Notes: generated from the sequence alone by a model not told the origin. A stretch of DNA of 64,000 nucleotides from Candidatus Latescibacterota bacterium (GCA_965208835.1 OZ242358.1:1312001-1376000), one strand, 5' to 3'; shown: positions 40,148 to 57,418, numbered from the stretch's first letter. Numbers and translations are program-made.

Positions 40148-40305
40148 GTGCTTCTCCTGGACTTCGGGTGTTGGATTGGGCGGCTGCCGGGCGCTTGTAC
40201 GACGCGCATGGGGACAGGTCGACAATCCCGTCTGGCCCGCACCGGCCGCGGTTCGGCTATAAAAGTATACAATTAGACTTGCGAAGACAACGAACAGTTC
40301 CAATT

Positions 40306-41295
40306 TCACGCCGATGGGAGGTGCTGCCGTGTCCGCAGTATACAGGCGACGCTGTGGTTTGCGTCGATTTCGAGCAGTTCAGGCACGATTTTCGTGCAAG
40401 CGTCTTCCCGTTCGGGGCAGCGCGGATGAAACGGGCAGCCTGGAGGGACGTTGGCCGGGCTTGGGACGTCGCCCGTGAGTACCGTGCGTTGCTTCCTGAC
40501 ACGCGGGTCCGGCTCGGGAACGGCCGATAGCAGGGCACGGGTATAAGGGTGCTGGGGATCGCTGCAGAGGGTGCGGCTTTCCGCGATTTCCACGATACGT
40601 CCGAGGTACATCACCGCGATGCGGTTGGAGATATGTTTGACAACGCTCAGGTCGTGCGCGACGAAGAGGAAGGTAAGGCCGAACCGGCTCTGAAGATCCT
40701 GAAGAAGATTGATGATCTGCGCCTGGATCGACACGTCCAATGCCGAAACGGGTTCGTCCGCAACGATGAATTCCGGATTCACGGCCAGCGCCCGCGAAAT
40801 GCCGATACGCTGGCGCTGCCCCCCGCTGAATTCGTGGGGATACCGGCGGGCATAGTCCGGCCGGAGACCCACGGTTTCCAGGAGTTCCGCCACGCGTTCC
40901 CGCGTGTCGCTGCCGTCCGTGAGCTTGTGGATTTTCAGTGCTTCGGCCAGCATGCCCCCCACTGTCATGCGGGGGTTCAGCGAACTGTAGGGGTCCTGGA
41001 AGATGATCTGCATGCGGCGTCGAACGGCCCGGAGTTCAGAGCGCTTCAGGTCGAAGACGTCGGTGCCGTTGAACAGAACGCGGCCCGCCGTAGCCTCGAT
41101 CAGCCTGAGGATGCTCCTCCCCGCGGTTGTCTTGCCGCACCCGGACTCCCCCACGAGACCCAGGGTTTCTCCCCGGTGCAGGGTGAAAGAGACTCCGTCC
41201 ACGGCTCTTACGTAGCCGACGGTCCGGGAGAATACCCCGCGGGTGATTGGGAAGTGTTTCTTCAGCCCATGGACTTCGAGCAGTGGTCTGGACAT
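40306..41295 (-). CDS. oppF: Oligopeptide/dipeptide ABC transporter ATP-binding subunit (OppF/DppF-like)
   Basis: [28 protein letters not shown] and GCPFHPRC. Confidence 0.92.
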
Positions 41296-41296
41296 G

Positions 41297-42295
41297 TCAA
41301 TCCGATCGCGTCACGGGAGATGGGTAATCTTCGACCATCCAGCAGGCGACGAAGCGTCCGCCCGAGGTCGGTTCGAGGCGCGGCTCGTCCGCTTCACATA
41401 CATCCTCCGCCAATGAACACCGGGGCGCGAACCGGCATCCGGCGGGAAAACGGGTCGCATCGGGCACGGTCCCCGGAATTACGGACAGCCGGCCTTTCTC
41501 TTCATTGAGCGTGGGTATGGACTCCAGCAATCCTCTGGTGTAGGGGTGCTGCGGGTTGGCGAATATCTCATCCACCGTTCCGGTTTCCACGATCTTTCCG
41601 GCATACATGACCGCCACGCGGTCTGCGACCTCCGCAATAACGCCAAGATCGTGGGTAATCATCAGGACGGCCATTCCCAGTTCCCTCTGAAGCCGGTCCA
41701 GAAGTTCAAGTATCTGGGCTTGAATGGTCACATCCAGCGCCGTCGTCGGTTCGTCGGCGATGAGGAGTTCCGGATTGCAGCACAGGGCCATTGCGATCAT
41801 CACCCGCTGGCGCATGCCGCCGGAAAGCTGGTGAGGATACTCGTTTGCCCGCTGTTCAGGATCCGGAATGCCGACCAGATTGAGCATGTCAACCGTTATG
41901 GCCCGGGCGGCGTCCCTGCCGAGACCCTGGTGGAGCATAACGGCTTCGTCAATCTGGTCTCCGCAGGTGAATACGGGATTAAGGCTGGTCATCGGCTCCT
42001 GGAAAATCATCGCGATGTCGTTGCCCCGCACACCCTGAAGGGCCGCTTCGTCCAGGCTCAGCAGATTGCGTCCGTTGAACCGGATCTCTCCTGAGACGAT
42101 CTCCCCCGGCGGTTCGGGTACCAGTCGCATTACGGACAGAGACGTGACGCTCTTGCCGCAACCGGACTCTCCCACCAGACCCAGAGTTTCGCCCTTCTTG
42201 AGGGTGAAGGAGACCCCGTCCACGGCCCTGGCGACCCCGCCGTCCGTATGGAAGAACGTCTTCAGATCTCTGACAGTTAGCAGTGGTTCCGACAT
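41297..42295 (-). CDS. oppD: Oligopeptide/dipeptide ABC transporter ATP-binding subunit (OppD/DppD-like)
   Basis: [24 protein letters not shown] and GCRFAPRC. Confidence 0.92.
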
Positions 42296-42400
42296 AGATC
42301 CACCATCTGTTGAAAATGCAACCGTCACGGATACCGTGCGAACCTCAAGCTCCATGCTGGAGAACGGCGTCCCGATGATTTCCTGACCGCCACCTGCGGG

Positions 42401-43144
42401 TCAGAACAGCGGTGGATTCAAATTCAGCCAGTCTTCCAGCAGGAAATCCACGCGTCCGATGAGGAGGGAGATTCGCGCCATGACGGTATAACCGAATGAA
42501 GCGCCGAACGAAACCATCAGGAAATAGATGCCGACCCTGGAGATGCCGCCCACGACCCCCTTATGTTCGACGGAAAAATAAAAGTAAATGAGTACGCTCA
42601 CAACGCCGATCAGGATGATCGCCGGATCCAGAACGGCCCATCCGAAGCCCGCCGACGCCTGTGAAAACGGGAGGATCGTGGGTTCGATCTGCTCGATAAT
42701 GAAGGAGGCGACGCGCCGGGGGATGGCCAGCCCCGCGCCGAGTCCCACGAAGAAGGCAAATGAAATACGGCTGAGCCACACCGCTTTGCCGACAAAGCGG
42801 GTCATCAGAAAAAGACCGAGGCAGGCCGGAACGATCACCAACCACTTGACGCCCGTGTCCGGCGGCGGACGGAACAGAGGGTTGAAGACGTCCAGCAGGA
42901 TGCTCTGGTACCAGACCAGAGCGAGTTCGTACGCGGCGACAACGCCCACGTAGAGATGCTCGGCCAGCTTGAAGAGCGGATTGTCCCTGTAGAGAAAGCT
43001 GTACAGGGCGAGCGTGATCCCTGCGGCGAGGATGATGCCGAATCCCGACCAGCTTGCCTCCAGGCTGCCAGAGGCAAGGAGATAGACATTCACCGCCGCA
43101 AAAAGCAGAAGGAAGATCGGGAAGACGATGTGTTCTCTTTGCAT
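42401..43144 (-). CDS. Uncharacterised multi-TM membrane protein (GlmL-cluster)
   Basis: About 7 hydrophobic segments; YSFLYRDNPLFKLAEHLYVG and GIYFLMVSFGASFGYTVMAR. Confidence 0.8.
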   Translation of the reverse strand: MQREHIVFPIFLLLFAAVNVYLLASGSLEASWSGFGIILAAGITLALYSFLYRDNPLFKLAEHLYVGVVAAYELALVWYQSILLDVFNPLFRPPPDTGVKWLVIVPACLGLFLMTRFVGKAVWLSRISFAFFVGLGAGLAIPRRVASFIIEQIEPTILPFSQASAGFGWAVLDPAIILIGVVSVLIYFYFSVEHKGVVGGISRVGIYFLMVSFGASFGYTVMARISLLIGRVDFLLEDWLNLNPPLF

Positions 43145-43156
43145 ACCGGTATCCTC

Positions 43157-43984
43157 TTACGTCCGTGAGGCGCTGCGGTGCAGAAAGTAGACCGCGTTGC
43201 CCAGCAGGATAAACCCGATGATGACGATGTGTGCGACGGATTGCGGACGCATACCGCTGACCGCGAGGCCTCTCTTGCCCACCAGCGCTTCGTATTCCGC
43301 GGCGCCCGCAAGCCCGCCGATGAGGCCGTTGAGCTGCCGGGACTGAAGGAAGGGGAAGAAATCCGGCGCCATCACCGCGGTACAACCGGCGCCGAGTGGA
43401 AATCGGTATCGTTCCTGCCCATAAGCGATCCATTCGTCCACGCCGGGGTACCCGGCCGCCAGGTCGATCACGTAATCGAAATCCTTCAACGAGCGCAGAT
43501 TGCGGGTGAGAGGCATTTCAGCCGTGTCGACGCCCCGGATGTCTTCCGGAAACGCGGCGTGCAGATCCTGACCCATGTTCAGGATCAGGATCGGACCTCC
43601 CGCCTTGAATCCGAGAAACGCATAGTCCGTCCCGTTTGTCCGTCCGTATTCCCCTGCCGCCGTATCGAACGCCTGCATGGCAAGTCCCACTGCTTCGGTG
43701 ATGAGGGTCACGCCCACCACCCGGATGTTCCGGCTGAAGCAATGGCGCAGAATGGCCAGAGCCATGGGCTGGAGCTCCGGCTGCGAACTGGGACCGTAGT
43801 CGAAGGAGATGAGTACGACGGCATCAGGTTTTCCGGCCAGGCTCTCTACCGTGTCGTAAACCGCGCGTACGTTGGGCGTGGCCTTGATTGGCAGCTGGAA
43901 GCCGATGAGGAGAGGAATACATACGGCCAGAAAGACGGCAATGTACACGATGCGGCGGTCGATGTTCAGGAGGCGCTCGATCAT
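43157..43984 (-). CDS. Uncharacterised membrane protein with extracytoplasmic alpha/beta domain (GlmL-cluster)
   Basis: N- and C-terminal TM segments; FDYGPSSQPEL and GLIGGLAGAAEYE; ATGA overlap with the upstream gene. Confidence 0.8.
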   Translation of the reverse strand: MIERLLNIDRRIVYIAVFLAVCIPLLIGFQLPIKATPNVRAVYDTVESLAGKPDAVVLISFDYGPSSQPELQPMALAILRHCFSRNIRVVGVTLITEAVGLAMQAFDTAAGEYGRTNGTDYAFLGFKAGGPILILNMGQDLHAAFPEDIRGVDTAEMPLTRNLRSLKDFDYVIDLAAGYPGVDEWIAYGQERYRFPLGAGCTAVMAPDFFPFLQSRQLNGLIGGLAGAAEYEALVGKRGLAVSGMRPQSVAHIVIIGFILLGNAVYFLHRSASRT

Positions 43985-44637
43985 TGTCCTTCCTCCCCGA
44001 GATAGGAACGTTCGATGCCGAAGATGATCCGAAGTGCCGTGGCGATTGCGCCGAGGCTCACGCCCAGCAGGATGCCCCGGCGAGCGGCGAGGTTTGGCGT
44101 GGCCATCAGCCACTGGGAAATGGCGGGCAGGTGTTCGGAGATGAGTGCGCCGATGGGCACCCGGCCCAGCATGACGAGCAGAGCGGCAACAAGAAGAACG
44201 ACCGCCTCGACCGAACGGGCCCGAAACGTGCGGTAGGCGGCGGAAGCGATAAAGAAGGCGAGCAGAGAGAACATCGTGGCGCCGCCGGCCACATGAATGT
44301 GGGTATACATCCAGTTCAGATCCAGACCGTCTCCCTCAGCGAGCGGCTGAAGGGGCCCCCGGCCGTTGTTGTAGACGGCAAGCAGGATGGTAACGATGAA
44401 GCCGACGTACACGACGGCGCTGAAGGCCCATCCGGCCTGCTTGCGCCTGATCCGGTGCCAGTGCATCTGCAACAGGCTGTGGATGCCAAGGAAAAGGGCG
44501 AACGCGGCGATGATCCTGTACCAGGTGGAGGTTGTAATCTCGACCGGCTGCGCAACCGGAACATAGTAGGTGAATATGCCGATGACGCCCGCTGCGAAAG
44601 CCACGAGTAGCGGCAGGGTGCGTTGCAGGAAATACAT
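43981..44637 (-). CDS. Uncharacterised multi-TM membrane protein (GlmL-cluster)
   Basis: About 6 TM segments; ATMFSLLAFFIASAAYRTFRARS and LRIIFGIERSYL. Confidence 0.8.
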   Translation of the reverse strand: MYFLQRTLPLLVAFAAGVIGIFTYYVPVAQPVEITTSTWYRIIAAFALFLGIHSLLQMHWHRIRRKQAGWAFSAVVYVGFIVTILLAVYNNGRGPLQPLAEGDGLDLNWMYTHIHVAGGATMFSLLAFFIASAAYRTFRARSVEAVVLLVAALLVMLGRVPIGALISEHLPAISQWLMATPNLAARRGILLGVSLGAIATALRIIFGIERSYLGEEGQ

Positions 44638-44755
44638 TCGATTTTCTCCCAGTGTTCTGTCGCAGAAATTGGTTGCCTGAATTCGGCGGCCGAATGGTGA
44701 GAAATTTATGGGACAGGACACTACAGTCTTGAACTGTTATGCCATGTTCACGCTG

Positions 44756-45991
44756 TCAACTCAGAATCGGCCAGAAGCCGATGCCGGCCAGTAAAGAACC
44801 CAGCACCAGCATAAGGATGAGGATTCCCTTCCCCAGGTCCTGTCCCTTCAGGCTTCCCAGCAGTTTGGGATCTCTGGACAGATAGGCGCTGGCGGCGTAG
44901 AGTTCCTCTCCCATCAGGGTATAGTCGCAGGTTGTGATAAAGAACGGAAGCTGTGTGTAGGCGTCGGTCGCGGCGATCTGGATAGCGCCGGTTGTGGAGC
45001 CGGTCTCCGCCAGGAGCAGGGATTCGGCGTAAAAATACCCCATCAGAAGATTGGCTGCCGGTCTTTCCCGCACCATCAGTCCCTCGAGCGCGGCCGCGTA
45101 GCTGAACTGGTCCGCGGCCGCCAGAAAGACGTTGTCCGGGTTGAACGCATCGGGTCTTCCGGCTTCGATGCAGGATTCTTTGACCACTTCCTGGCTCACG
45201 GACATCACAATCGGATCCCGATTTCCAACCTTGAGCTGAGTGTCGTATTCGGCGGTTCTCTTCGCCACCTGGCCGAGTATATTCACGGCGGCAATGGTGG
45301 AAGGGCTGCCCATGTCCTGGAGACCGTGCACGAACAGCACCGGTTTGCCCATTTCGGTTGCCCGGCCCAGGGCTTCGTCCAGAGCGTCCAGGCCTGCCAG
45401 CCGCCGGATATAAAGATTCTTTCGCCGGGCAAGGCGGATATAGACGAGGATCAGAATGGAGAACAGCGCGGCCAGCAGAAAATTGTTGCTTTTGGTCCAG
45501 TTGAAGTAGTTGCCGCGGGCCCGGGCTTCCACAACCGTGTGGCCTGCGCCGTGGACGCCGAGGCGAACGAAATAGGGTCGGTCGTTCTCGAGCCGGATCC
45601 GGTTCCGTCCGTCGGGATCGAGGTAGGAATCGATGTGTACGAAGTGATGATTGCGGTTCTCCTCCCCACTGCCGAACGTGGCAGACTCGTCGGCCATCGT
45701 CGGAGCCGTACTGGGCTCCAGTTCGGCGACCTGATGAAATGGCCCGTCCGGACGTTCGGAAATGCCGATGCGATATCGCGCGCTGTCAGGCAGGTCATCC
45801 ATCCGGCGCCATGTCAGCGTGATGCTGTGCCCCTGGTCGTTGGGCGTGTCGAATGCCCGGACGTCGGTGGGCGCCGAACCGCCGGCGGCCGGCGCGGCAG
45901 CGATGGCAAGGGCGAAACTGAGGAATAGATGCGCCATTGCGTGTCTCCTGGCGGTTTTAATCAGGCGCGCCTGGACGCTCCAAATCATCAT
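44756..45991 (-). CDS. DUF6754-like protein with N-terminal FN3-like extracytoplasmic domain
   Basis: Signal-like segment; DTPNDQGHSITLTW (FN3-like); TM segment; IRRLAGLDALDEALGRATEMGKP and GEELYAASAYL. Family name recalled from motifs, not searched. Confidence 0.7.
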   Translation of the reverse strand: MMIWSVQARLIKTARRHAMAHLFLSFALAIAAAPAAGGSAPTDVRAFDTPNDQGHSITLTWRRMDDLPDSARYRIGISERPDGPFHQVAELEPSTAPTMADESATFGSGEENRNHHFVHIDSYLDPDGRNRIRLENDRPYFVRLGVHGAGHTVVEARARGNYFNWTKSNNFLLAALFSILILVYIRLARRKNLYIRRLAGLDALDEALGRATEMGKPVLFVHGLQDMGSPSTIAAVNILGQVAKRTAEYDTQLKVGNRDPIVMSVSQEVVKESCIEAGRPDAFNPDNVFLAAADQFSYAAALEGLMVRERPAANLLMGYFYAESLLLAETGSTTGAIQIAATDAYTQLPFFITTCDYTLMGEELYAASAYLSRDPKLLGSLKGQDLGKGILILMLVLGSLLAGIGFWPILS

Positions 45992-47109
45992 GCCTCGATC
46001 CTTTCGGCGTTTGCGCGGGGTATCACGGCCTGTTGTCCGTTCTCGAATTGAACTTCAAGGACACGTACCTGGATTTCCGACTCGACGGCCGCCAGTTCGG
46101 ACGGCAGGGCGGTGACGACACCGGTCTTTCCGAAGAAGGGCGCCCGTATCGTTCGGATTGGATCTCCGATGGACAGGCCGTCCCGGGCGACGGTTTCCTC
46201 GGCGGCGGCTGAATTCTCCGTGTCCGGAACGATGATTTCGGGGCGAAGCACGCCGGCCCGGATCTGGGTTGCGCCAGAGATCGAGGCCTCGTCGCCGTTT
46301 CTCTCGTTCAGGATATCGAAAGTTTTGGTTGCCATGGCGATGTCGCCGAATCCTTCGGTAATCACGACGGTGAGGCCGATTTCCTCCGTGCCCGTAATGG
46401 CCACACCCAGGTCATACCCGAGAAGGCTACGCAGATCATGGTCGCGGATGCCCCCGCCAATGAGGCCGGCTGCGCCGATCTCACACGCTTTCCGGATGAG
46501 ATCCAGTGTGACCAGGCCGCCGGCGATGCAGATCCTGCCGGCACAGGAGGCGTCGATCCGGTCTGCCGGTAGCTGCTCATCGGGTGTGGCGGCAAGTGTC
46601 CGGATCGCACCCCAGCTTTCCCCGCCAATGCCGAAAATCCCCTGAAGAAACGCGCCGACGGTTTCAACTGTGACGCCTTCGCCGGGAATGGTTTCCACAA
46701 CGGTGCCGTCCACGTACGCCCTGACCTGGACAGGTCGGGGCGGCCCTCGCAGAATGACCTGGCCGGTAACGGGCGATACGCTCTCCACGGTGCCCGTGAC
46801 CGGCGATTCCACCGTGGTTTTGAACCAGCTGATGAACGGCCGGGTCTCTGCGACAGGTTCCCCCGACTCGACCGCCTCACCCTCATTCTTGAGCATGAAG
46901 GCCGGCAGTTCGTCCGGTGTGACACCAAGCCTGTTGACCAGGTTCAGGGTGGTCACGTCGCCGGGCAGTTCGGTCCGGGCCACCACCCGATCGCGCTGCA
47001 CGGATTCGCCTTCCGAAACCAATACCTCTCCGGTGAGCGGCAGTTGGCGTCGCTTCCGAACGGTCGCGCTGCGGGTGACTCGCAGGCCGGGTGTGTATGT
47101 ATGTGCCAT
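45988..47109 (-). CDS. Soluble uncharacterised protein with barrel-sandwich hybrid (biotinyl/lipoyl-like) repeats and KOW-like C-terminus
   Basis: N-terminal YTPGL; VSEGESV and NEGEAVESGEPVA...VESPVTGTV; ITEGFG; GATQIRAGVLRPE; GDPIRTIRAPFFG. Confidence 0.75.
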   Translation of the reverse strand: MAHTYTPGLRVTRSATVRKRRQLPLTGEVLVSEGESVQRDRVVARTELPGDVTTLNLVNRLGVTPDELPAFMLKNEGEAVESGEPVAETRPFISWFKTTVESPVTGTVESVSPVTGQVILRGPPRPVQVRAYVDGTVVETIPGEGVTVETVGAFLQGIFGIGGESWGAIRTLAATPDEQLPADRIDASCAGRICIAGGLVTLDLIRKACEIGAAGLIGGGIRDHDLRSLLGYDLGVAITGTEEIGLTVVITEGFGDIAMATKTFDILNERNGDEASISGATQIRAGVLRPEIIVPDTENSAAAEETVARDGLSIGDPIRTIRAPFFGKTGVVTALPSELAAVESEIQVRVLEVQFENGQQAVIPRANAERIEA

Positions 47110-47175
47110 CAGTTCAGGTTTTCGAAGCCGGCGCGCCGCAAAGCCTGCCGTCGCGATCGTCGGCCGGTGATGGTC

Positions 47176-48246
47176 TCACACCTTCATTTTCGGATCCAGG
47201 GCGTCTCGCAGGCCGTCGCCCAGCAGGTTGTAAAGGGTCACGGTGATAAATATGGCGAAACCGGGTACGATAACCAGCCACCAGGCCGCCGTATTGTTCC
47301 GGGCGCCCGCGAGTATCGCGCCCCAGGTGATGGCCTCCGCGGGCACGCCGATGCCGAGAAAGCTCAATCCGGATTCGGCCAGAATGGCGCCCGCCACCCC
47401 GAAGGCCGCCGGGATGAGTACGGGCGCGATCGCGTTTGGCAGAATGTGGATGAACATGATACGGCCGCTGGAATATCCGAGACTCTTGGCCGCGGAAACG
47501 AAGTCGTAGCTCCTGACCTGCAGAAACTGCGATCTCGTGAGCCTGGCGATACCCACCCAGCCGGTAAAGCCGAGGATGATCATCACGAAGAAGAGGCTGG
47601 GTGGAAAGAATGCGGCCACCGTGATGATCAGAAAGAGGGTGGGTATGGCCGCCCAGAGTTCGAACAGACGCGAAAGAACCAGGTCGGTCCAGCCCCCGAA
47701 ATAACCCGCCAGCGCGCCGAGAGCGACGCCGATGATCATCGAGATCGCCACCGAGACCAGTCCGATGGTCAGTGCGTATCGCGAACCGTGGATCAGCCCG
47801 GAAAGAACGTCCCGGCCCAGCCGATCCGTTCCCAGAATATGTGCTGTGCCGGGCGGCTGGTACTTGTCCCCCAGGTTGACGTCGCTGGGACCGTAGGGAA
47901 CGGGCGGAAATATTGCGGATTCCGACCTCAGGCGTTTGAAGTTTTTCCTTCTTCTGAGCGGCTCCGGCCAGTCGGCCAGTCCGAGATGAACGGCGTACTG
48001 GCGGAAGGCGGGGAAATAGGTCTTGCCCCTGTACTTCATATAGTAGGGTTTGTTGCCCGCGAGAAAATCCGCGAACACCGCCGTGAACGCGAGAACGCCG
48101 ATCGCCGCCAGGCTTATGAGGGCCGGCCGGTTCTTTTTGAACTGCCGCCAGACCAGTTTGGAGTAGGTCTGACCCTCCTGGACAGGTTCGGATTCGGGCG
48201 TCGGGACGTCAGGTTCGTTGAGATCGCGCGTTGTCGCGTCGGACAT
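47176..48246 (-). CDS. oppC: Oligopeptide ABC transporter permease (OppC-like)
   Basis: LGTDRLGRD, FVSAAKSLG (EAA loop) and GDGLRDALDP. Confidence 0.92.
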   Translation of the reverse strand: MSDATTRDLNEPDVPTPESEPVQEGQTYSKLVWRQFKKNRPALISLAAIGVLAFTAVFADFLAGNKPYYMKYRGKTYFPAFRQYAVHLGLADWPEPLRRRKNFKRLRSESAIFPPVPYGPSDVNLGDKYQPPGTAHILGTDRLGRDVLSGLIHGSRYALTIGLVSVAISMIIGVALGALAGYFGGWTDLVLSRLFELWAAIPTLFLIITVAAFFPPSLFFVMIILGFTGWVGIARLTRSQFLQVRSYDFVSAAKSLGYSSGRIMFIHILPNAIAPVLIPAAFGVAGAILAESGLSFLGIGVPAEAITWGAILAGARNNTAAWWLVIVPGFAIFITVTLYNLLGDGLRDALDPKMKV

Positions 48247-48250
48247 GGAT

Positions 48251-49552
48251 TTAACCCTGAAGACGGGAAAACTCGATGCGCGGGTCCACGACTTTCAGGA
48301 GGATGTCCGCGAGAAGAATTCCCAGCAACGAGAGGAACGAACCGATGGTCAGAATGGCCATTACCATGGGATAGTCGCGCACGAGTACGGATTGAACGCC
48401 AAGATATCCCAACCCCGGAATGGTGAAGATGGTCTCGATAAAGACCGAGCCGGCGATGATGGCCGGAAGCAGATTCGCCAGTATGGTCACAATGGGAATA
48501 AGTGAGTTGCGGAAGACGTGCTTCAGAATCACGACTTTTTCCGGAAGGCCCTTTGCGCGGGCCGTGCGGACGTAGTCCAGCCTGAGGTTCTCCAGCATGC
48601 TGGTTCGCATGAATCGGGAGAGACCCGCGAAGCTGGCGTAGCTCGAGGCCAGGACCGGCATGGCCATGTGATGGGCGTGGTCCGTCAACAGTCGCCAGAA
48701 TCCCCACTCGGAAGACGCGTCCAGAGACTGAATGCCGGAGGCCGGAAACCAGTAGAAGAACTCCTTGTTGCAGAAAAATACGATGAGCAGCATGCCCACC
48801 CAGAACGAAGGCATGGACCAGAGGATAAAGGTCCCCGTGGTCAGCGTGCGATCGGTCCGGGTATCCTGTTTCACGGCCAGCCAGATGCCGAGCGGCAGTC
48901 CGATGACGTAGGCGACGATCAGACTGATGATGTTGATTTCAATGGTGATGGGCACACGCGCGAGGATATGCGAGATGACCGGCTGCTGATCCTTGAAAGA
49001 ACGGCCGAAATTGAGCGTAACGAAGCGCCGGTCGAAGCAATGGAAGAGGAGCAGGCCGGCGCCGGTATACTCGTAGTTTTCCTCGAGTTTGACGGTCTTG
49101 CTCTCCCAGAAAGAGGAAAGGACGAGCGCCTGCGCCTCGTCCGGATGATATTTTTCGAAACTGCTAAGGAATCGGGCTTTTCGCGCCTCGTTTTCCAGCG
49201 CGGCCAATTCGCTTCTTTCCATGGGTTCCAGGGTCGAGAGAAAGTCGTCAACGCGCCGGCCCATGCGTTCGTAGCTGTTGAGCGGCTCAACGTGAAGAAC
49301 CAGGCTCGATAACCAGTTGAGGTATTGGAGGTGTAGCGGCCTGTCCAGGCCGAGCTGACGGCGAAGGTCCTGGCGCGTTTTTTCGAAATCGGACTGCCGT
49401 TCCGTCGAGATGCCCTCCTCGCCTGCCATGCCGCCGAGAAAGAAGTCGACGGGGTCGCCCGGAGCGAGATGCATGACCAGGAAGGAAATCAGCGTGATGC
49501 CGATCATCGTCGGGATCATCAGCAGGCTGCGCTGCAGGATGTACTGGATCAT
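48251..49552 (-). CDS. oppB: Oligopeptide ABC transporter permease (OppB-like) with enlarged loop
   Basis: APGDP, LGLDRPL, DYVRTARAKGL, ETIFTIPGLG and DPRI. Confidence 0.92.
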   Translation of the reverse strand: MIQYILQRSLLMIPTMIGITLISFLVMHLAPGDPVDFFLGGMAGEEGISTERQSDFEKTRQDLRRQLGLDRPLHLQYLNWLSSLVLHVEPLNSYERMGRRVDDFLSTLEPMERSELAALENEARKARFLSSFEKYHPDEAQALVLSSFWESKTVKLEENYEYTGAGLLLFHCFDRRFVTLNFGRSFKDQQPVISHILARVPITIEINIISLIVAYVIGLPLGIWLAVKQDTRTDRTLTTGTFILWSMPSFWVGMLLIVFFCNKEFFYWFPASGIQSLDASSEWGFWRLLTDHAHHMAMPVLASSYASFAGLSRFMRTSMLENLRLDYVRTARAKGLPEKVVILKHVFRNSLIPIVTILANLLPAIIAGSVFIETIFTIPGLGYLGVQSVLVRDYPMVMAILTIGSFLSLLGILLADILLKVVDPRIEFSRLQG

Positions 49553-49623
49553 CTGCGTTCAGGCCTTTCTGTGCCGTCGTCTGTTCATCGGGGGTCGCAA
49601 CAGGGTCCGGTCGTCTCCCCGGC

Positions 49624-51465
49624 CTATTGGTACAACCGGTTGGAGGCGCCTACCCACCACTCCTGCGTGTCCGCGCCAACGGCATACCAGTTGTCACCCG
49701 CAAAACGCCTGCTGTAGGAAATGGCGTTGCGGGATTTCCAGAGAAACGTATAGGGTTGCTCATTATACAGGATTTCCTGGAAACGCCGGTAGAGCTGTAT
49801 TCTCTTGTCCATATCGAACTCCCTCCGGTAGGTTTCCAGGATGCGGTCGACTTCGTCGTTCTTGAAGCCGATGTAATTCGACCCCTGTCCCTCTGCCTGC
49901 GAGGAGTGCCAGATCTGATAGGAATCCGGCGGTGTGCGCAGGCTGCCGGTCCAACCCAGGGTACAGGCTGCGAAGTCCTTTTTTCGTACGACCCGATCCA
50001 GAAAAATGGTCCAGTCCAGTTCGCGCACGTCGCAGACGACACCGATGTCCTGCAGTTCATATTGCAACGCCAGGGCGATGTCCTTGCGGAGCTGGTTCCC
50101 GGAGTTGACAAGGAATTCGAATTTGAACGGGAGTTTCTCGCCGTCGACGACCTTGTCCAGGATGCCGTCGTTGTCGCTGTCGGACCAGCCGGCCTCCTCC
50201 AGAAGGGTAAGCGCTCGGTCGGGGTCGTAGGAATGGGGTTCGAGGCTGTGGTTGTATTCGGGCCGGAATTTGTGGATGGGGCTCTCAACGGTTTCCGCGA
50301 GGCCGAACATGAGGTTAAGGACCATGCTCTCACGGTCGGTGAGGTACGTCATGGCCTTTCGCACGCGCCGGTCGCGAAAGATGGGGTGCGCGTTGTTCCA
50401 GCCGATGTACACGTAGCCCGATGAATAGATCACGCTCTTCTTGAATCGCTCGACAAAATCCGGAGACCAGCTTTTGTCCTTGAACTGCAGCGGTCTGAGG
50501 CCGAAGTAGTCGATGTTTCCGTTTGTGAGCTCGATAAACGCGGCCTCCTGGTCATTCACGATTTTGAAGACGATCTTCTCCACGTATCCCTTGGGCATGA
50601 GATCGGTCCGTTCCCCTCCCCAGTAGTTGGGATTGCGGGTAAGGATCACTTTCTGGCCCGTGACCACGTCTTCGTCCCAGTCTTTCACGAGATAGGGGCC
50701 GGAGCCCAGCATTTTCCGATGGTATCCGGTGTTGAATTTCTCCGCGAATTGCTGCACGCGCTCCGCGTGCGGGCCGCTCTCCCAGGATCCGTCGATGAGG
50801 CTGCGGATGTCGACCGGTTCCAGCAGCCCGTCGGGGTCGTAGAAGTGTTTGGGAAGGATCTCCATAGCACCCAGGGAGATGTTGTTCCTGAAATAGGGTT
50901 CCCGACAGACGAAACTGATTCTGTGTTTGCCCTCCTGCTTGACGTCGCTGATGGCTGCGTAGTAGTTCCGCAGCGAGGCAGCCAGGACTTTCGGGTTCTT
51001 GATGACCTTGATGCTGAAGAGTACGTCGTCCGCCGAGAGCGGCCTGCCGTCGGCGAAACGGACGTCGTCGCGCAGGTCGAAGGTGTAGGTGAGCTTGTCT
51101 TCGGACACCGAGGGAGGTCCCTTCGCTACCAACCCTCTGAGACTGTAGGGTGATTCGTTCTCGATGTCGAGCAGCGACTCGAAGATATACTGGTGTACCG
51201 TGGAAGCGCCCGAGTCGTTGGATACGTACGGATTGAAGTTCTCCGGGTCGGACAGGAAGTGGTAAACCATCCAGTCTCCGTATTCCGGCTGGGTATCGCC
51301 GGTATACATGGCGGGTACCCGTTCCGTTCCGTCCAGCACGATCGCGGGAGCTTCCCTCGTATCCATAAGCGTGCGTTGAACCTTCTGCCAGGGTGTGTCG
51401 TCATCGCATGCCGCTGAAAAAAGGCAAAACAGCCCCAGGATTACCAATCCGCGCGCGTTTGCCAT
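49624..51465 (-). CDS. oppA: Oligopeptide ABC transporter substrate-binding lipoprotein (family 5)
   Basis: Lipobox FSAAC; YTFDLRDDVRFADGRPLSADDV, GSGPY and DRRVRKA. Confidence 0.9.
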   Translation of the reverse strand: MANARGLVILGLFCLFSAACDDDTPWQKVQRTLMDTREAPAIVLDGTERVPAMYTGDTQPEYGDWMVYHFLSDPENFNPYVSNDSGASTVHQYIFESLLDIENESPYSLRGLVAKGPPSVSEDKLTYTFDLRDDVRFADGRPLSADDVLFSIKVIKNPKVLAASLRNYYAAISDVKQEGKHRISFVCREPYFRNNISLGAMEILPKHFYDPDGLLEPVDIRSLIDGSWESGPHAERVQQFAEKFNTGYHRKMLGSGPYLVKDWDEDVVTGQKVILTRNPNYWGGERTDLMPKGYVEKIVFKIVNDQEAAFIELTNGNIDYFGLRPLQFKDKSWSPDFVERFKKSVIYSSGYVYIGWNNAHPIFRDRRVRKAMTYLTDRESMVLNLMFGLAETVESPIHKFRPEYNHSLEPHSYDPDRALTLLEEAGWSDSDNDGILDKVVDGEKLPFKFEFLVNSGNQLRKDIALALQYELQDIGVVCDVRELDWTIFLDRVVRKKDFAACTLGWTGSLRTPPDSYQIWHSSQAEGQGSNYIGFKNDEVDRILETYRREFDMDKRIQLYRRFQEILYNEQPYTFLWKSRNAISYSRRFAGDNWYAVGADTQEWWVGASNRLYQ

Positions 51466-51485
51466 CTGATGCCTCCCTGTTGCAC

Positions 51486-53270
51486 TTAGTGTCGAGGATA
51501 AAGGTCCAATGCCTGGTTCCAGTCGGCAACCTGCTCGACCGCGTCCCCATCGGAAAACGGAAGCGGCCGTCCGCGCCCGTCGAGAATCAAACCGGCCGCG
51601 CCGCCTCTCACGGTACGGCGAATCGACTGGCCCGCCCCCGCCCCTGCGTCCCAGCCCGATTCGGGATGCAGGCTGACGTCGACCTCCTGGTCGGGGCCCG
51701 CGTGGAACAGATGGATGGATCCGACTTTCAGTTCGCCGGACTCTGTGCCGTCCGGAAGCGCAATTTCGTACGTGGCGCAGACTTCGCCCGGTTTTCCCTG
51801 CCCGGAAGGCGCAATGCAGGTGCCCAGATCGACCAGGCAGTCCCGTTCGAAGACTTCGGCGGCGGCCTGTTCATTGACGCTTGTCAGGACGCCCAGGTGG
51901 GGCATCATGAATATGCTGTCAACGGCCAGCCTCGTGAAACCCTGTGGCTGGAAGGCGTCGATGAGCATGGCGGCCGACTGCGCGCGCCGGGGCGCGTGGG
52001 AAAGTACGCCTCCGCTGCCCACGAGCAGGTCCAGGTCCGGCATGTGAATCAGGCTTTCGCCCGCGGCGGTCTGATCGAAAGCGTCGGAAAGGGTGCGTTC
52101 CGTCTGCACGCCTTTAAGGCCTACGGCCAGGGCCCGGTGCTGCTCGAACGCCAGGCGCAATGCCTCGCGGGCGATGGCCTGCTCGAGCTGCAGCTCCTCA
52201 AGCGTCTGGGGCACGGTGGTCGGACGGATCATCTTGTTCTTGACGCGGTCTCTGAGGTCGGCCTCTTCGATTTCAAATGGGACCCAGCGCATCACGTTCG
52301 GCAGGCCTGCTTCCGCCAGAACGTTCGAGATGCTGTACGACATACCCAGATTGGCGCTCACGGTACGATTGAATCGATCCCCGAACACGCTGAAGACATC
52401 GGTGGTCGCCCCGCCGATGTCCACACCCACGACGTTGATGTCGCGACGCCGGGCCACGGTCTGAATGAGCAGGCCGACCGCGCCGGGCGTTGGCATAATG
52501 GGGGCACCCGTCCATTCCATCAGCTTACGGTATCCGGGCGCCTGCGCCATCACATGTTCAAGGAAGAGGTCGTGGATCACCTGCCGCGCCGGTCCCAGGT
52601 TCTCGCGTTCGAGTTGAGGGCGGATATTGTCGGTGGTTTTCAGCGCGGTTTTTTCGCCCAGGACCTGTTGAACGTCCTCACGTGCGTCGGTGTTTCCGGC
52701 GTAGATCACCGGAAGCCGGAATCCGGCGCCGAACCTCGGTCTGGGGTCCGCCGCGGCGATGAATTCCGCCAGTTCCACCACGTGGCTCACGGTACCGCCG
52801 TCCGTTCCACCTGACAGGAGCACCATGTCGGGACGCAAGTGGCGGATGCGCTCGATCTTCTGGTGGGGCAGGCGACCGTCGTTGGAAGCGAGGACGTCCA
52901 TGACAATGGCGCCGGCGCCCAGGGCAGTACGCTGGGCGCTTTCGCCGGTCATCGCCTGGACAACGCCGCCTACCATCATCTGAAGGCCGCCTCCGGCGCT
53001 GCTTGTGGACACATAAATGTCAACGCCCCGGCCGTCTGCCGCGGGCGTAATAATGCGTTCGCCATCAAGGATGACGCGCCCGGAGAGTTCCTCGACTTCC
53101 TGGATGGCGTTGAGCACGCCCCGGGTAACGTCTTCAAACGGAGCTTCGACCGTGGTTGGCGCCTCGCCGCGACAGGTCTGCCGGTAGCATTCCTCTTCTT
53201 TCTCGATAAGAATGGCCTTGGTGGTCGTGCTGCCGCAGTCCGTTGCGATGATGACGTCCGGTCTATCCAT
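51486..53270 (-). CDS. GlmL/MutL-like (glutamate mutase L family) ASKHA actin-fold ATPase
   Basis: Phosphate-1 TDCGSTTTK; SSAGGGL; phosphate-2 VDIGGATTDV; RTVSANLGMSYS; GSGGVLSHAP; LILDGRGRP. Confidence 0.82.
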   Translation of the reverse strand: MDRPDVIIATDCGSTTTKAILIEKEEECYRQTCRGEAPTTVEAPFEDVTRGVLNAIQEVEELSGRVILDGERIITPAADGRGVDIYVSTSSAGGGLQMMVGGVVQAMTGESAQRTALGAGAIVMDVLASNDGRLPHQKIERIRHLRPDMVLLSGGTDGGTVSHVVELAEFIAAADPRPRFGAGFRLPVIYAGNTDAREDVQQVLGEKTALKTTDNIRPQLERENLGPARQVIHDLFLEHVMAQAPGYRKLMEWTGAPIMPTPGAVGLLIQTVARRRDINVVGVDIGGATTDVFSVFGDRFNRTVSANLGMSYSISNVLAEAGLPNVMRWVPFEIEEADLRDRVKNKMIRPTTVPQTLEELQLEQAIAREALRLAFEQHRALAVGLKGVQTERTLSDAFDQTAAGESLIHMPDLDLLVGSGGVLSHAPRRAQSAAMLIDAFQPQGFTRLAVDSIFMMPHLGVLTSVNEQAAAEVFERDCLVDLGTCIAPSGQGKPGEVCATYEIALPDGTESGELKVGSIHLFHAGPDQEVDVSLHPESGWDAGAGAGQSIRRTVRGGAAGLILDGRGRPLPFSDGDAVEQVADWNQALDLYPRH

Positions 53271-53610
53271 TCAGTCGGTTTTCCGTCTCCACAAGTGTAT
53301 CGATCAGTGCCTGGACACTCTGCCGTTTCTCCAGAAAACGCACGAATCGACCGTATTCCGCGCCTGAGAAGATAAGGGTGACGAAGGGAGAAAGAAAAGT
53401 CAAAAACTGACTGCCTATAAAGTTGAACGGCCGGCCTGCTTCCAGCACCATCAACGCCGGTGTGGTCATTTGCCGGCGAACCACGAATTCCGCCAACTTG
53501 GCAGCCAGAGCACGTTCTTCCTCCGTGATTCGGCTCTCCGGAGGGTTGACGGCGAAAGCGTGTTCGCACCAGGTCCTAAGACGCTGCATCCGCGAGGCGG
53601 GTCTGGACAT
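53263..53610 (-). CDS. Small conserved-looking hypothetical protein (GlmL-cluster)
   Basis: AEFVVRRQMTTPALMVLEAGRPFNFIGSQ; overlaps the GlmL-like start by 8 nt. Confidence 0.7.
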   Translation of the reverse strand: MSRPASRMQRLRTWCEHAFAVNPPESRITEEERALAAKLAEFVVRRQMTTPALMVLEAGRPFNFIGSQFLTFLSPFVTLIFSGAEYGRFVRFLEKRQSVQALIDTLVETENRLNG

Positions 53611-54016
53611 ACTCGATGATTTCCTCCCGATTGTCTCGAAGGCGCAGGAAACAGCCTCGAAACGGATCGAGCCGGTGAGGATGGGCGAACGGGCTGAGAA
53701 AAACGCCATCCGTGACAACGGCATGCCGGCGAATCCGGTTCCACGGAATTGTCCGCCGCGCGCCAAGGTGCGCTATCACGACATGCTTCTCCAGGAGTGC
53801 GTATCGTGTGGGGAGAAAGTAACGGGACATGGATGCCGTGAGGAGCGCTGCCGAAAGAAAACCGTACGCCGGCATGCTGAATTCAATGGCGATCAGTACC
53901 GATAGCCCCAGAATGACCACGATGAGCAGGCCCGTCTTGGCCGGCGGTTCTTCCAGGAGGGGATGGACCGACCAGCGGAGTTCAGATGCCGATTCGTGCG
54001 TCGTCGGTTTGTCCAT
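53576..54016 (-). CDS. Hypothetical 2-TM protein with possible PH-like C-terminal domain
   Basis: LRWSVHP, two TM segments, YFLPTRY and LSPFAHPHRLDPFRG. Confidence 0.7.
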   Translation of the reverse strand: MDKPTTHESASELRWSVHPLLEEPPAKTGLLIVVILGLSVLIAIEFSMPAYGFLSAALLTASMSRYFLPTRYALLEKHVVIAHLGARRTIPWNRIRRHAVVTDGVFLSPFAHPHRLDPFRGCFLRLRDNREEIIEYVQTRLADAAS

Positions 54017-54068: not shown

Positions 54069-54944
54069 TTATATAATGCGGCGGACGACGCGGGGTTGGC
54101 GCTTGCCGCCTCCGAGGTTCCAGGATTCCGTGCCGTACTTGGTTTCAGCGAGATGTTCGGCGCAGGCGGTTTCCTCGCGAGACAACGTCGATTCGGTCAG
54201 GGTGATGTCGAGGGTCTCTTCAAAACCGTCACGCAGGGCGTGCGCCACGGTGTGGAAGTCTGCCGGGCGGCCCGCTTCCGAAAGGGAGACGGTGTGCCGA
54301 TCCAGTTCACGACGAAAGCGTTCCTTCAGGAGCTGACGGCGGTCCGGCATGAGATCGATGAGATGCTTGTGTTCCGGGCCCAGAAGAAGCGAGCCGTGTT
54401 GAAGCAGCACGCCGCCCAGGCGTCGCTGGGCGCTGCCTATGATTTTCCTGTCTGCGATCGTTACCTCGTATTGCGTAGTACTTGAAAAACAGGGTGAAGT
54501 GAGACCCTCTCCACGGGGAGACGAAGCGGGATTGCGTCGCGGCTCGAATCGGGCGGCCACGCCGAGGAGTTGCAGGCTTGCAACCAGGCAGGCGCTGATC
54601 TTTCGGTAGGACTCCTGAATGGAGCCGCCCAGCAGCGGGTCGTCGGTGCGGCAGGTGACGCTGTATGTGAGTTCGTTCCAGTGGAGGACGGCGCGCCCGC
54701 CGCTGGGCCGGCGGACAAGCTGAATGCCACGCTCCCGGCATCGATCCGCGTCGACTTCGCGAGCGATCCGCTGGGCATAGCCGAAAGAGACGGCGGGGGG
54801 CGTCCAGCTGAACGTCCGGACCGTGGGCGGCGCGGTATCCTCCTCAACGCCCCGCACGATGGCTTCGTCCACGGCCATATTGAAAAAGGCGTTTCCCGAC
54901 CCGGTGTTCAGGAAACGCCACGGACGCGATCCGGTCTTCCGCAT
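54069..54944 (-). CDS. Lipoate-protein ligase A family / LipM-like octanoyltransferase
   Basis: NMAVDEA, VRRPSGGRAVLH, KIIGSAQRR and LQHGS. Confidence 0.9.
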   Translation of the reverse strand: MRKTGSRPWRFLNTGSGNAFFNMAVDEAIVRGVEEDTAPPTVRTFSWTPPAVSFGYAQRIAREVDADRCRERGIQLVRRPSGGRAVLHWNELTYSVTCRTDDPLLGGSIQESYRKISACLVASLQLLGVAARFEPRRNPASSPRGEGLTSPCFSSTTQYEVTIADRKIIGSAQRRLGGVLLQHGSLLLGPEHKHLIDLMPDRRQLLKERFRRELDRHTVSLSEAGRPADFHTVAHALRDGFEETLDITLTESTLSREETACAEHLAETKYGTESWNLGGGKRQPRVVRRII

Positions 54945-54947
54945 GAA

Positions 54948-55706
54948 TCACGAGACTCCAAGCTTTTGCAACGCCTCTTTCGCCGCCATCTGTTGCGCTT
55001 CTTTCTTGCTGCGTCCCTTTCCGAAGCCCATTCGTTCGCCGCCGATCAACACTTCGACGCTGAACGTCTTGTGGTGGTCCGGCCCCTCTTCCGAACTGAC
55101 CAGGTAACGGGGGTGTCCCCGGCCTACGCCCTGCGTATGCTCGAGGAGGACGCTCTTGAAATTGAGGTAGCTGTTGTTGGCGACAATAGCCTCGATGTTG
55201 CTCATGAGGTGGCGCTGTACGAATGCGTCCGCGGCCTTGAGACCGCCGTCGAGATAAACCGCGCCGAGAATAGCCTCGAAGGCATCTCCGATGATCGATG
55301 TCCGGTCTCTTCCTCCCGCCAGATCCTCTTCTCTGCTGAGCAGGATGTGGTGACCGAGTCCGATCTCGTGGCCTCGCTGCGCGAGAATGACTTTGCTGAC
55401 GAGTACTGACTTGATTTGAGTGAGGTCGCCCTCACGTTTGTTCCGGAATTTCCGATAAAGGTTCTCCGTGACCAGCAGGTCCAGTACGGCGTCACCGAGA
55501 AACTCGAGCCGCTCGTTCGATGCAATGCTCCCTTCGTCAGCGGCGTAGGCGTAGGAGCGGTGTTTGATCGCCTGGACCAGGAGGTCGGGATCCGAAAAAC
55601 AGTAGCCGAGTTTTTCCTGGAGGCTTTCCGGGGTATACGCTTCCCGGTCGCGCCCGAGCCATCGTGCAACCGCACGTCGAATTCTGACAAGTCCGATAAG
55701 CTTCAC
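54948..55706 (-). CDS. rnc: Ribonuclease III
   Basis: NERLEFLGDAVL, DAFEAILGAVYLD and dsRBD GRSKKEAQQ; exact start uncertain. Confidence 0.96.
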   Translation of the reverse strand: MKLIGLVRIRRAVARWLGRDREAYTPESLQEKLGYCFSDPDLLVQAIKHRSYAYAADEGSIASNERLEFLGDAVLDLLVTENLYRKFRNKREGDLTQIKSVLVSKVILAQRGHEIGLGHHILLSREEDLAGGRDRTSIIGDAFEAILGAVYLDGGLKAADAFVQRHLMSNIEAIVANNSYLNFKSVLLEHTQGVGRGHPRYLVSSEEGPDHHKTFSVEVLIGGERMGFGKGRSKKEAQQMAAKEALQKLGVS

Positions 55707-55894
55707 CCTGCGGGAATGGAGGTTGTACTCGGCCGTGAAACAAACTGACAAGCCGTCTGCATTCCGCCGTGACGGTGGCGTCCGACGTCCGCCCGGCGAG
55801 TCTGCAGGCTTGTGCGCCATTCGGACCGGCTCTGCGTCCGACAGCACGCCAACAAACTTACGATGTCGTCACAGCCGGGGAAGTCGGGAACTAA

Positions 55895-56041
55895 CAGCCC
55901 GTTGAAAAAGACCATCCGGGCTGCGGCCGGCCCTTGCGGTCGAAATACTGCGTTGCGCGCCTTGTCTTCGGCCGCGATGGCAATCTATTTCCGGGTCGGG
56001 ACACCATACCTCGCCTGCTGAGCGACTTTATCAACGGACTG
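55895..56041 (-). mobile_element. MITE-like element family A, copy 3 (147 bp, inverted)
   Basis: CAGCCCGTTGAAAAAG...CTTTATCAACGGACTG; abuts the fabF stop codon. Confidence 0.8.
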
Positions 56042-57295
56042 CTATCGGCCGTTGTACTCACGCATTGCGAGTACCGCGTTGTGTCCGCCGAATCCGAAGG
56101 AGTTGTTCAAGGCCACGCTGACGGGCATTTCCCGTGCCGTGTTGGGCACGTAGTCCAGGTCGCACTCCGGGTCCGGATGTTCGTAGTTGATGGTGGGTGG
56201 TACCCGGCCGTGATGGATGGCCAGGAGGCAGGCGATGCTTTCGATTGCGCCGGAGGCGCCCAGCAGATGGCCCGTCATGGACTTCGTGGAACTGACCGCG
56301 ACCTCTCTCGCATGATTCCCCAGGACGGACTTAATGGCGGCGGTTTCGGTCCGGTCGCCGATCGGTGTGGAGGTTCCGTGGGCATTGATGTAGTTTACGT
56401 CCTCCGGGTTCAGCCCTGCCTGGTTCAGGGCGATCCTCATCGCCCGGGCGCCGCCCTCGCCGCCCGGGGCCATGTCGGTGACGTGGTACGCGTCGGCGGT
56501 AAAACCCGCACCGGCAATCTCGGCGTATATCCGAGCGCCCCGCCGCCGTGCGTGCTGCAGTTCTTCGAGTATGAGCGCCCCGCAGCCCTCGCCAAGTACG
56601 AATCCGTCGCGCTCAAGGTCGAAGGGGCGGCTGGCACCCTGCGGATCCTCGTTGCGCGTGGAAAGCGCCTTCATCGAAGCGAAACCCCCAAGCGACATCG
56701 CGCTGACGGCCGCTTCGGCGCCACCGGTGACCATGACGTCGGCTTCGTTGTGCCTGATCTCTCTGAAGGCGCATCCTATCGCATGCGCGGCGGAGGAACA
56801 GGCGGAAACGGTGGTATAGTTCGGCCCTCTGGCGCCGAGCAGGATGGAAACCTGCCCCGACGTCATGTCGGGAATCATCATGGGGATGAAGAATGGGCTG
56901 ATCCTCCGTGCGCCCTTCTCAAGGAGGACGGTGTGTTGATCTTCGAAGGTCCAGATACCGCCGATGCCCGAGCCGAAAATCACGCCCATCCGGTCGGGGT
57001 TCCCCGCATCCACGTCCAGATCTGCGTCAGTGACAGCCATCTGCGCGCAACAGATGGCATATTGGGTGCACAGATCGTTGCGCCTCGCCATCCTGCGGTC
57101 GAGACCGAACCGCTCTGCGTCGAAATCCTTCAATTCGGCTCCGAACGTAACCCGGAATCCCGTCGTATCGAATCGGCGGATGTGATCGACGCCGCTTTCC
57201 CCGTTGAGCAGCGCCTCCCAACAGGTATCGGTGTTCAATCCGTTCGGCGCGAGGACGCCGAGGCCCGTCACTACGACCCTTCGGTTTCCATTCAA
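56042..57295 (-). CDS. fabF: 3-oxoacyl-ACP synthase II
   Basis: RRVVVTGLG, SACSS, NAHGTST, KSMTGHLLGA and NSFGFGGHN; start approximate. Confidence 0.96.
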   Translation of the reverse strand: MNGNRRVVVTGLGVLAPNGLNTDTCWEALLNGESGVDHIRRFDTTGFRVTFGAELKDFDAERFGLDRRMARRNDLCTQYAICCAQMAVTDADLDVDAGNPDRMGVIFGSGIGGIWTFEDQHTVLLEKGARRISPFFIPMMIPDMTSGQVSILLGARGPNYTTVSACSSAAHAIGCAFREIRHNEADVMVTGGAEAAVSAMSLGGFASMKALSTRNEDPQGASRPFDLERDGFVLGEGCGALILEELQHARRRGARIYAEIAGAGFTADAYHVTDMAPGGEGGARAMRIALNQAGLNPEDVNYINAHGTSTPIGDRTETAAIKSVLGNHAREVAVSSTKSMTGHLLGASGAIESIACLLAIHHGRVPPTINYEHPDPECDLDYVPNTAREMPVSVALNNSFGFGGHNAVLAMREYNGR

Positions 57296-57418
57296 GGGCA
57301 CCTTCTCCCGCGTATCGGTGTTTGCATCGGCGCAGTGTTGCGACGGTATCGAATTCTCCGCGCCAGGTTCACGATCCGGACGCCGACGCGCTGACCGTGA
57401 CGCCAACTGCCCGGCAGG

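Follow-up and report, generated by a model that had tools for sequence, protein, structure and literature searches.

GlmL-type ATPases have, to our knowledge, been placed so far only beside B12 mutases, and the named members of the Pfam family MutL accompany enzymes of this type. A further point of comparison is the reactivase of glycerol dehydratase, whose alpha chain, according to one review (PMC7674605), is composed of an ATPase and a swiveling domain, the latter holding a Rossmann-like beta subunit that is released on ATP hydrolysis. Here, we analyzed a GlmL-like ATPase gene of a Candidatus Latescibacterota bacterium that belongs to a cluster of eight genes encoding, for the most part, proteins without described relatives. 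The cluster spans positions 42401 to 54016 of the window, i.e., of the whole stretch of 64,000 nucleotides that was analyzed (GCA_965208835.1 OZ242358.1:1312001-1376000), and all coordinates are positions in this window. This set of genes, kept together in several little-studied phyla, looks like an undescribed ATP-driven membrane machine, and no type of machine described to date matches it. Database names of the proteins are hypothetical, "DUF6754 domain-containing," or "glutamate mutase L." The literature searched held no mention of DUF6754, PF13941, or PF20539; queries for GlmL, TIGR01319, and "glutamate mutase L" returned unrelated matches only, among those listed, and a Kuenenia expression paper does not refer, in its main text, to GlmL, MutL, hydantoinase, glutamate mutase, or oligopeptide.

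Conservation of the eight-gene cluster

Every gene between positions 40306 and 54016 is carried by the minus strand. The cluster opens with s146 (53576-54016), which encodes a small membrane protein, followed by s167 (open reading frame [ORF] at 53263-53766, trimmed to 53263-53589), encoding a small protein of ~108 residues once trimmed. The gene for the GlmL/MutL-family ASKHA ATPase (51486-53270; 594 residues) comes next, and the remaining genes encode its soluble partner A (45988-47109; 373 residues), the DUF6754 protein B (44756-45991; PF20539), the membrane protein C (ORF at 43981-44721, trimmed to 43981-44637; 218 residues), protein D (43157-43984; 275 residues, with a helix at either end), and the membrane protein E (42401-43144; 247 residues). 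A preliminary description of this locus had reported eight co-oriented genes, ATGA overlaps between A and B (45988-45991) and between C and D (43981-43984), and an 8-nucleotide overlap between s167 and the ATPase gene (53263-53270). ORFs were found at all eight positions on the minus strand, and the three overlaps read exactly as claimed. The treatment of the eight genes as one group holds for their orientation and conservation but not for contiguity, because three genes of an ATP-binding cassette (ABC) importer, previously unmentioned, sit inside the span in this window. These noncore genes, all recognized by both Pfam and NCBIfam, encode a binding protein of the SBP_bac_5 family (49624-51465) and two permeases, one OppB-like (48251-49552) and the other OppC-like (47176-48246).

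A search with B of one genome per species identified 587 relatives, and the best 80 loci were kept. These loci originate from Latescibacterota (some of them labeled Gemmatimonadota) and anammox Planctomycetota; many are cut by contig ends, and only complete ORFs were counted. The ATPase, A, B, C, D, and E were all present in 47 of the 80 loci. B, C, D, and E were all present in 62 loci and contiguous in 52. The ATPase and A were both present in 57 loci and lay less than 400 nucleotides apart in 35 of them; gaps of 475 to 1,745 nucleotides, of kinds other than the importer genes, separated them in 8. Among the 47 loci with the six larger genes, s146 was found in 38 and s167 in 32. Further Planctomycetota loci, with G+C contents of 45 to 67%, held all six in 7 of 10 cases, with 31 to 70% identity to the window proteins. 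The arrangement is far beyond chance and recurs in two phyla. Latescibacterota and Planctomycetota both maintain this core, which is made up of s146, s167, the GlmL-like ATPase, and proteins A to E.

The genes are also inherited together. Among 151 genomes of the phylum of the window, 126 encoded DUF6754 and 125 encoded A, with both present in 123 and neither in 23. The five mismatches (DUF6754 only in three genomes, A only in two) all came from assemblies that were 60 to 89% complete. In 81 Planctomycetota genomes, DUF6754 was found in 23 and A in 21, every genome with A also having DUF6754. Presence of the two genes thus agreed in 146/151 and 79/81 genomes, respectively. Both were missing from whole families (for example, 0/13 genomes for each in family f10), and most genomes carried a single copy of the system. 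Because the sampled genomes are related to one another, these counts are to be read as a pattern and not as a statistical test. Together with the synteny, they answer the question of co-conservation raised in the preliminary description: the genes are kept together and co-inherited without glmS or glmE.

Gene fusions and rearrangements revealed how the cluster is partitioned. Sixty-four of the 65 long relatives of A (679 to 2,000 residues) contained PF13941. In the fusions P0143 and P0213, MutL occupied residues ~12 to 489 and A extended from residue 621 or 641 to the end, i.e., over the last ~370 residues. Fusions of this type are labeled "glutamate mutase L" in databases and come from Neomarinimicrobiota, Planctomycetota, and Cloacimonadota. 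Since the ATPase and A are fused, they are two halves of one functional unit. In Brocadia, s167, the ATPase, and A are encoded at one site and B, C, D, and E at another. In a Planctomycetota locus (L125; G170:C20:97000-116999), a single s146-s167-ATPase-A set precedes two complete B-C-D-E sets in tandem, and E is doubled in another (L127). The fusions, the Brocadia split, and the two duplications therefore divide the system into two modules, one soluble and one in the membrane, that are inherited together. The fusions, the doubling of B-C-D-E, and the matching presence and absence of the genes argue for one functional system. An apparent A-B fusion (P0271; 707 residues) was rejected as a read-through or gene-call error, since it is a single member, keeps the signal peptide of B, and ends inside B.

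Properties of the encoded proteins

The ATPase matched Pfam MutL (PF13941) with 430.9 bits, above the gathering score, over residues 7 to 478 (profile positions 1 to 450). Its phosphate-1 and phosphate-2 motifs are intact, as the preliminary description had read them (DCGSTTTK from residue 11 and DIGGATTD from residue 284), so that the protein belongs to this hydantoinase-branch ASKHA family. It shares PF13941, the actin-fold ATPase core, and both phosphate motifs with GlmL/MutL and Or-4. Unlike these proteins, it did not reach any of the three NCBIfam GlmL cut-offs, scoring 229.7 bits against GlmL (NF040745; cut-off, 475), 212.8 bits against the GlmL-related Or-4 (NF040744; cut-off, 600), and 168 bits against TIGR01319 of the GlmL family (cut-off, 204.05). 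The Scalindua homologue and two ATPase-A fusions gave similar scores. The ATPase further differs by an extra C-terminal domain of ~115 residues; residues 480 to 594 alone matched no Pfam family, and no relative of the ATPase was detected in the PDB by sequence or profile searches. Its sequence is 60 to 70% identical between phyla. An additional, free-standing copy of the C-terminal domain, 46% identical to residues 427 to 592, is encoded between the ATPase and A in a Brocadia locus (L090:5101-5613).

The genome of the window contains a second MutL gene (C1:4356500-4362100; L083:6538-12042), whose product passes the GlmL cut-off with 540.5 bits and is 34% identical to the window ATPase over 261 residues. 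GlmL is encoded with mutase subunits, whereas the window ATPase is encoded with A and membrane proteins. In agreement with the preliminary description, the Pfam scan detected no mutase or B12-binding gene in the cluster. That the ATPase might instead track B12 mutases encoded elsewhere was not borne out, since it scores below the GlmL cut-offs and the genome has a separate, true GlmL paralog. Judging from these comparisons, the window system is not a B12-mutase accessory. The second MutL gene is flanked by a small ORF with a B12-binding domain, a gene for a 490-residue DegT-like pyridoxal phosphate (PLP) protein, and a gene for a 619-residue protein without family. GlmE (PF06368) had no match in the genome, which is 97.8% complete, and this neighborhood may be an undescribed B12/PLP mutase set.

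The structural model of A (mean predicted local distance difference test [pLDDT] score, 86.2) comprised three domains. Residues ~49 to 123 formed a barrel-sandwich hybrid, as had been suggested from sequence, and resembled the N termini of NqrA (Z = 7.7) and RnfC (Z = 7.3) over 64 to 65 residues in VIA-align comparisons. Residues ~130 to 300 formed a swiveling beta/beta/alpha domain resembling RraA (Z = 9.6; 132 residues aligned), phosphotransferase system (PTS) enzyme I (Z = 9.1), and rifampin phosphotransferase (Z = 8.7 to 8.8). Residues ~310 to 373 formed a KOW/SH3-like domain (Z = 8 to 9 with KOW domains). These folds are likely but not certain, because the Z values are moderately above those of unrelated models. 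By sequence, A gave Pfam matches to HlyD_3, RnfC_N, and Biotin_lipoyl that were all below threshold, and sequence and profile searches of the PDB detected no significant match. The family is large, with 3,244 representatives at E ≤ 0.001 and 1,000 at E ≤ 1e-30 (clusters at 50% identity).

Columns kept at ≥90% in 121 relatives of A (27 to 53% identity) clustered in the swiveling domain (Q156, G157, G160, G162, E164, T239-E242, T251-G255, and G279-E291). In residues 130 to 300, no histidine was found among the invariant columns of close relatives or among the ≥90% columns of the 121 relatives. Thus, despite its fold, A is not a phosphohistidine carrier, and it differs from PTS enzyme I in that the phospho-accepting histidine is not conserved. 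A resembles NqrA also in being soluble and encoded beside small polytopic membrane proteins, and the relatives P0252 and P0199 reach the Pfam NQRA_N or RnfC_N cut-offs. However, RnfC_N scored 17.2 bits on the window A, below its cut-off of 25.6, and the Z values of 7.3 to 7.7 lie in a range that unrelated folds can reach. No Rnf/Nqr, FMN_bind, Fe-S, or NADH domain was found in A to E, and no Rnf/Nqr family matched any of 26 relatives of E and 22 relatives of C at E values up to 1.

Hydropathy and modeling predict that B consists of a signal peptide, an outer fibronectin type III-like (FN3) domain, a helix, a cytoplasmic DUF6754 domain, and a last helix. PF20539 matched residues 159 to 405 with 379.6 bits (gathering score, 27), and FN3 folds filled the list of fold matches of the model, with Z values up to 10.7 for the outer domain, in keeping with the DUF6754-like protein with an FN3-like external domain proposed earlier. 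DUF6754 is placed in the cytoplasm because the flank following the first helix is rich in K and R (4.4 in 15 residues). The model contained an alpha/beta part at residues 199 to 290, and invariant residues of DUF6754 include H222, C355, D356, and E362-E363. In 755 longer relatives of B, the outer part was made of FN3 domains, PQQ-like propellers, HEAT repeats, or ~1,000 residues without family; the outer part varied while the DUF6754 part remained 50 to 68% identical. B had no significant match in the PDB by sequence or profile, and a search of the named clusters of the ESM Atlas with the DUF6754 part gave no usable match.

Three membrane proteins had been anticipated besides B. C and E are indeed polytopic, with about six helices and six to seven helices, respectively, by hydropathy; D is not, as it has a single helix at each end of a soluble, alpha/beta-looking domain of ~220 residues. 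This domain probably faces the periplasm, because both tails are rich in K and R (3.4 in 11 residues and 2.9 in 7 residues). The start ATG of D lies inside the ATGA overlap. C probably starts at position 44637, as the resulting 218 residues agree with most of its relatives (216 to 219 residues). Pfam matches to C were below threshold throughout the 22 members scanned, none of the 26 members scanned for E matched a Pfam family, and for D no Pfam family was found and the best hit of a profile search of the PDB had a nonsignificant E value of 0.006. In these searches, B to E had no match to any family of known function. Homology between the inner domain of B and D and between C and E was rejected (hhalign probabilities of 0.35 and 0.41, respectively).

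Hydropathy of s146 showed a strongly hydrophobic stretch near residues 30 to 48 and a soluble tail of ~85 residues, and the protein matched no Pfam family. Relatives of s146 are also encoded upstream of s167 in two Planctomycetota loci (L125 and L129). Alignment of s167 showed conservation starting at about residue 60, with the motifs HAFA and LESxRPLNFxGSQ. Since only the last ~108 of its 167 residues are conserved, translation probably starts at position 53589 or 53610. The gene adjoins that of the ATPase in Scalindua, Brocadia, and other Planctomycetota, its stop overlapping the ATPase start by the 8 nucleotides noted above.

Proposed activity and alternative explanations

We propose that the eight genes encode a two-module, ATP-driven system that does work in or across the membrane, with the ATPase acting through A, a proposal to which we assign an even chance of being correct. 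The soluble module would comprise the ATPase and A, which are encoded with the small membrane proteins s146 and s167, possible tethers. The membrane module, B-C-D-E, is predicted from its topology to expose domains at either side of the cytoplasmic membrane. The ATPase would hydrolyze ATP and work through A, whose swiveling domain, bearing the most conserved polar residues of the family, may take part in this action. A would grip and release some cytoplasmic portion of the membrane module, for which DUF6754 of B is the most likely candidate, and the outcome would be work in or across the membrane, for example, transport or remodeling of something at the cell envelope. The preliminary description had already envisaged a membrane machine such as a non-ABC transporter. 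The existence of a co-inherited system distinct from glutamate mutase is retained from that interpretation, whereas transport becomes one of several possible activities. The term non-ABC applies to the eight core proteins, which contain no ABC domains, but a full Opp-type ABC importer is interleaved with them in the window.

Several observations weigh against this proposal. Among distantly related ATPase-A fusions (14 loci of one branch; ~25 to 34% identity to A), tblastn and hidden Markov models detected no relative of B to E or s167 within 6 kb, and no conserved neighbors were found at these loci. Therefore, the soluble pair can occur separately from the membrane genes or may act with different partners; the genomes concerned may also encode the membrane genes elsewhere, some DUF6754 proteins being labeled Cloacimonetes. 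One locus (L124) holds A and B alone together, and in another (L130) the ATPase gene is not next to A. Residues 292 to 379 of B, its most conserved stretch within DUF6754, were modeled with pLDDT values below 50. Finally, no channel-like or carrier family was detected for C and E in the Pfam scan of their relatives.

More tentatively, the system may represent a new class of machine, in which a GlmL/hydantoinase-type actin-fold motor, distinct from the ABC, P-type, V/F-type, and AAA+ motors, drives a DUF6754-C-D-E complex with an exchangeable outer domain through a swiveling-domain adaptor. On this wider claim, which we hold to be possible but rather less than probable, the class would be absent from model organisms but common in Latescibacterota, Planctomycetota (anammox bacteria and others), Marinimicrobia, Cloacimonadota, and additional uncultured phyla. 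DUF6754 was detected in none of 14 control genomes of well-known organisms, which would explain how the system escaped study. It is nearly universal in Latescibacterota (126/151 genomes), and the system is present in anammox bacteria, which are relevant to the nitrogen cycle. The ATPases form a large, highly conserved sister group of GlmL, and gene fusions, conserved synteny, and shared inheritance link this group to membrane proteins without described relatives. If the claim is correct, the system would provide a new way to couple ATP to membrane work and a function for DUF6754 and four unnamed protein families.

The nearest mechanistic model for the proposed action would be the B12 dehydratase reactivase, as described in the review cited above. 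The glycerol and diol dehydratase reactivases, like the present system, combine an actin/Hsp70-fold ATPase with a swiveling-type domain; here, A contributes this domain, which in many cases is joined to the ATPase by fusion. The likeness is one of domain types, but the cluster lacks a B12 enzyme and has membrane proteins as the partners. This model suggests an alternative, namely, that the ATPase and A, rather than powering transport, form a repair or activation chaperone that uses ATP to open a cofactor-bearing B-E membrane enzyme and to exchange a damaged cofactor or subunit. The association of named MutL members with B12 mutases, the addition by A of a swiveling-type domain to an actin-fold ATPase, the alpha/beta part of the B model, and the invariant H, C, D, and E residues of DUF6754 are consistent with such a role. 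On the other hand, no cofactor-binding family was found in B to E, no enzyme-like family or known active site was recognized, and neither VIA-align search with A listed the reactivase in its top 50 structural matches. The variable outer domain of B would also be odd for a plain enzyme. We consider this explanation unlikely, although credible.

A role in sensing or envelope anchoring is decidedly unlikely. In such a system, the outer domain of B would bind a ligand or an envelope layer, and a signal or force would pass through C, D, and E into the cytoplasm. There, the ATPase and A would serve as a scaffold or a switch comparable to PilM or FtsA, controlled by cyclic di-GMP in some lineages. 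The range of outer parts of B, from one FN3 domain to ~1,000 residues next to a well-conserved DUF6754 part, fits this explanation. So does the fusion of a PilZ domain (E = 1.5e-14) to the N terminus of A in a Latescibacterota cluster (P0043) and also in P0045; in the same 90%-identity cluster, members were called either with PilZ (473 residues) or without it (372 residues). In one Planctomycetota lineage (L126 and L127), moreover, a gene for a PD40 beta-propeller protein lies between the ATPase and A and a gene for a coiled-coil OmpA-family protein follows E (L126:724-1794, L126:9041-9805, L127:12381-13421, and L127:3506-4420 for the PD40 and OmpA-family genes), and B is a giant of 1,272 to 1,312 residues. 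However, the PilZ, PD40, and OmpA links are each confined to one lineage, and an active enzyme would account better than a scaffold for the intact phosphate motifs of the ATPase and for its extreme conservation. We know of no scaffold formed by the GlmL/hydantoinase branch.

It is improbable that the eight genes serve as accessories of the interleaved Opp/Dpp-type importer, for example, in the processing, gating, or recycling of imported peptides. In the window, the cluster interrupts the importer genes, and E is directly followed by genes for OppD-like (41297-42355) and OppF-like (40306-41295) ABC ATPases, also noncore and recognized by Pfam and NCBIfam, and then by a gene for a peptidase-like PD40 protein. 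A relative of oppD occurred within 1.2 kb after E in 37 of the 80 loci, and an SBP_bac_5 gene preceded s146 in 12. In one Planctomycetota locus (L132), the order ATPase-A-B-C-D-E-s167-SBP-OppB-OppC-OppD-OppF is found on one strand, the cluster being immediately followed by a complete opp operon. In contrast, Scalindua, Brocadia, and most other Planctomycetota loci had no opp genes nearby, and two further loci (L016 and L022) had unrelated neighbors. A strict count placed genes for the binding protein, OppB, and OppC between the ATPase and A in 12 of 57 loci, to which L007 and L013 can be added, whereas in 35 of the 57 the two genes were adjacent without opp genes between them. The opp genes are therefore an insertion in part of the lineages and not members of the core. 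The core proteins also differ from Opp/Dpp and other ABC systems in having no ABC_tran, permease (BPD), or binding-protein (SBP) domain, and many genomes have the core without opp genes. The Opp, PD40, and OmpA links could suggest a connection with peptides or with the cell envelope, but none of them is general.

That the genes are neighbors through shared descent or chance and act separately is scarcely credible. Related genomes of a single phylum account for many of the 80 loci, and synteny alone therefore overcounts, but the gene order recurs in a second phylum at 31 to 70% protein identity, genes are fused, B-C-D-E is duplicated as a block, and A and DUF6754 are jointly absent from whole families.

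Surroundings of the cluster

None of the eight proteins matched PADLOC-DB at E ≤ 0.001, and a role in anti-phage defense was set aside. A scan for promoters and terminators gave counts close to those of shuffled sequences. In Latescibacterota, the cluster is often trailed by oppDF and a PD40 protein or has a binding-protein gene ahead of it. In the window, the gene that directly follows oppF (36581-40309, minus strand) encodes a protein of 1,242 residues that combines TolB-like PD40 repeats with a region resembling Peptidase_MA, and relatives of this protein come after the cluster in many Latescibacterota loci.

On the upstream side, the Latescibacterota cluster is preceded by a fabH-fabD-fabG-fabF-rnc block and an LplA-like gene, i.e., by a housekeeping neighborhood. 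In the window, the RNase III and FabF genes lie at 54948 to 57406, and the gene for an LplA-like lipoate-protein ligase lies at 54069 to 54944, directly upstream of s146, all on the minus strand. The ligase matched PF21948 with 126.9 bits and stayed below the NCBIfam LplA cut-offs. Lipoylation or biotinylation of A at K97 was considered and set aside: the residue is invariant in close relatives but is not conserved at ≥90% in the 121 wider relatives. The LplA gene lies directly upstream of s146 in 13 of the 80 loci. In Scalindua sediminis (L044), an LplA-like gene and GcvP2 are located ~2 kb upstream of the ATPase gene.

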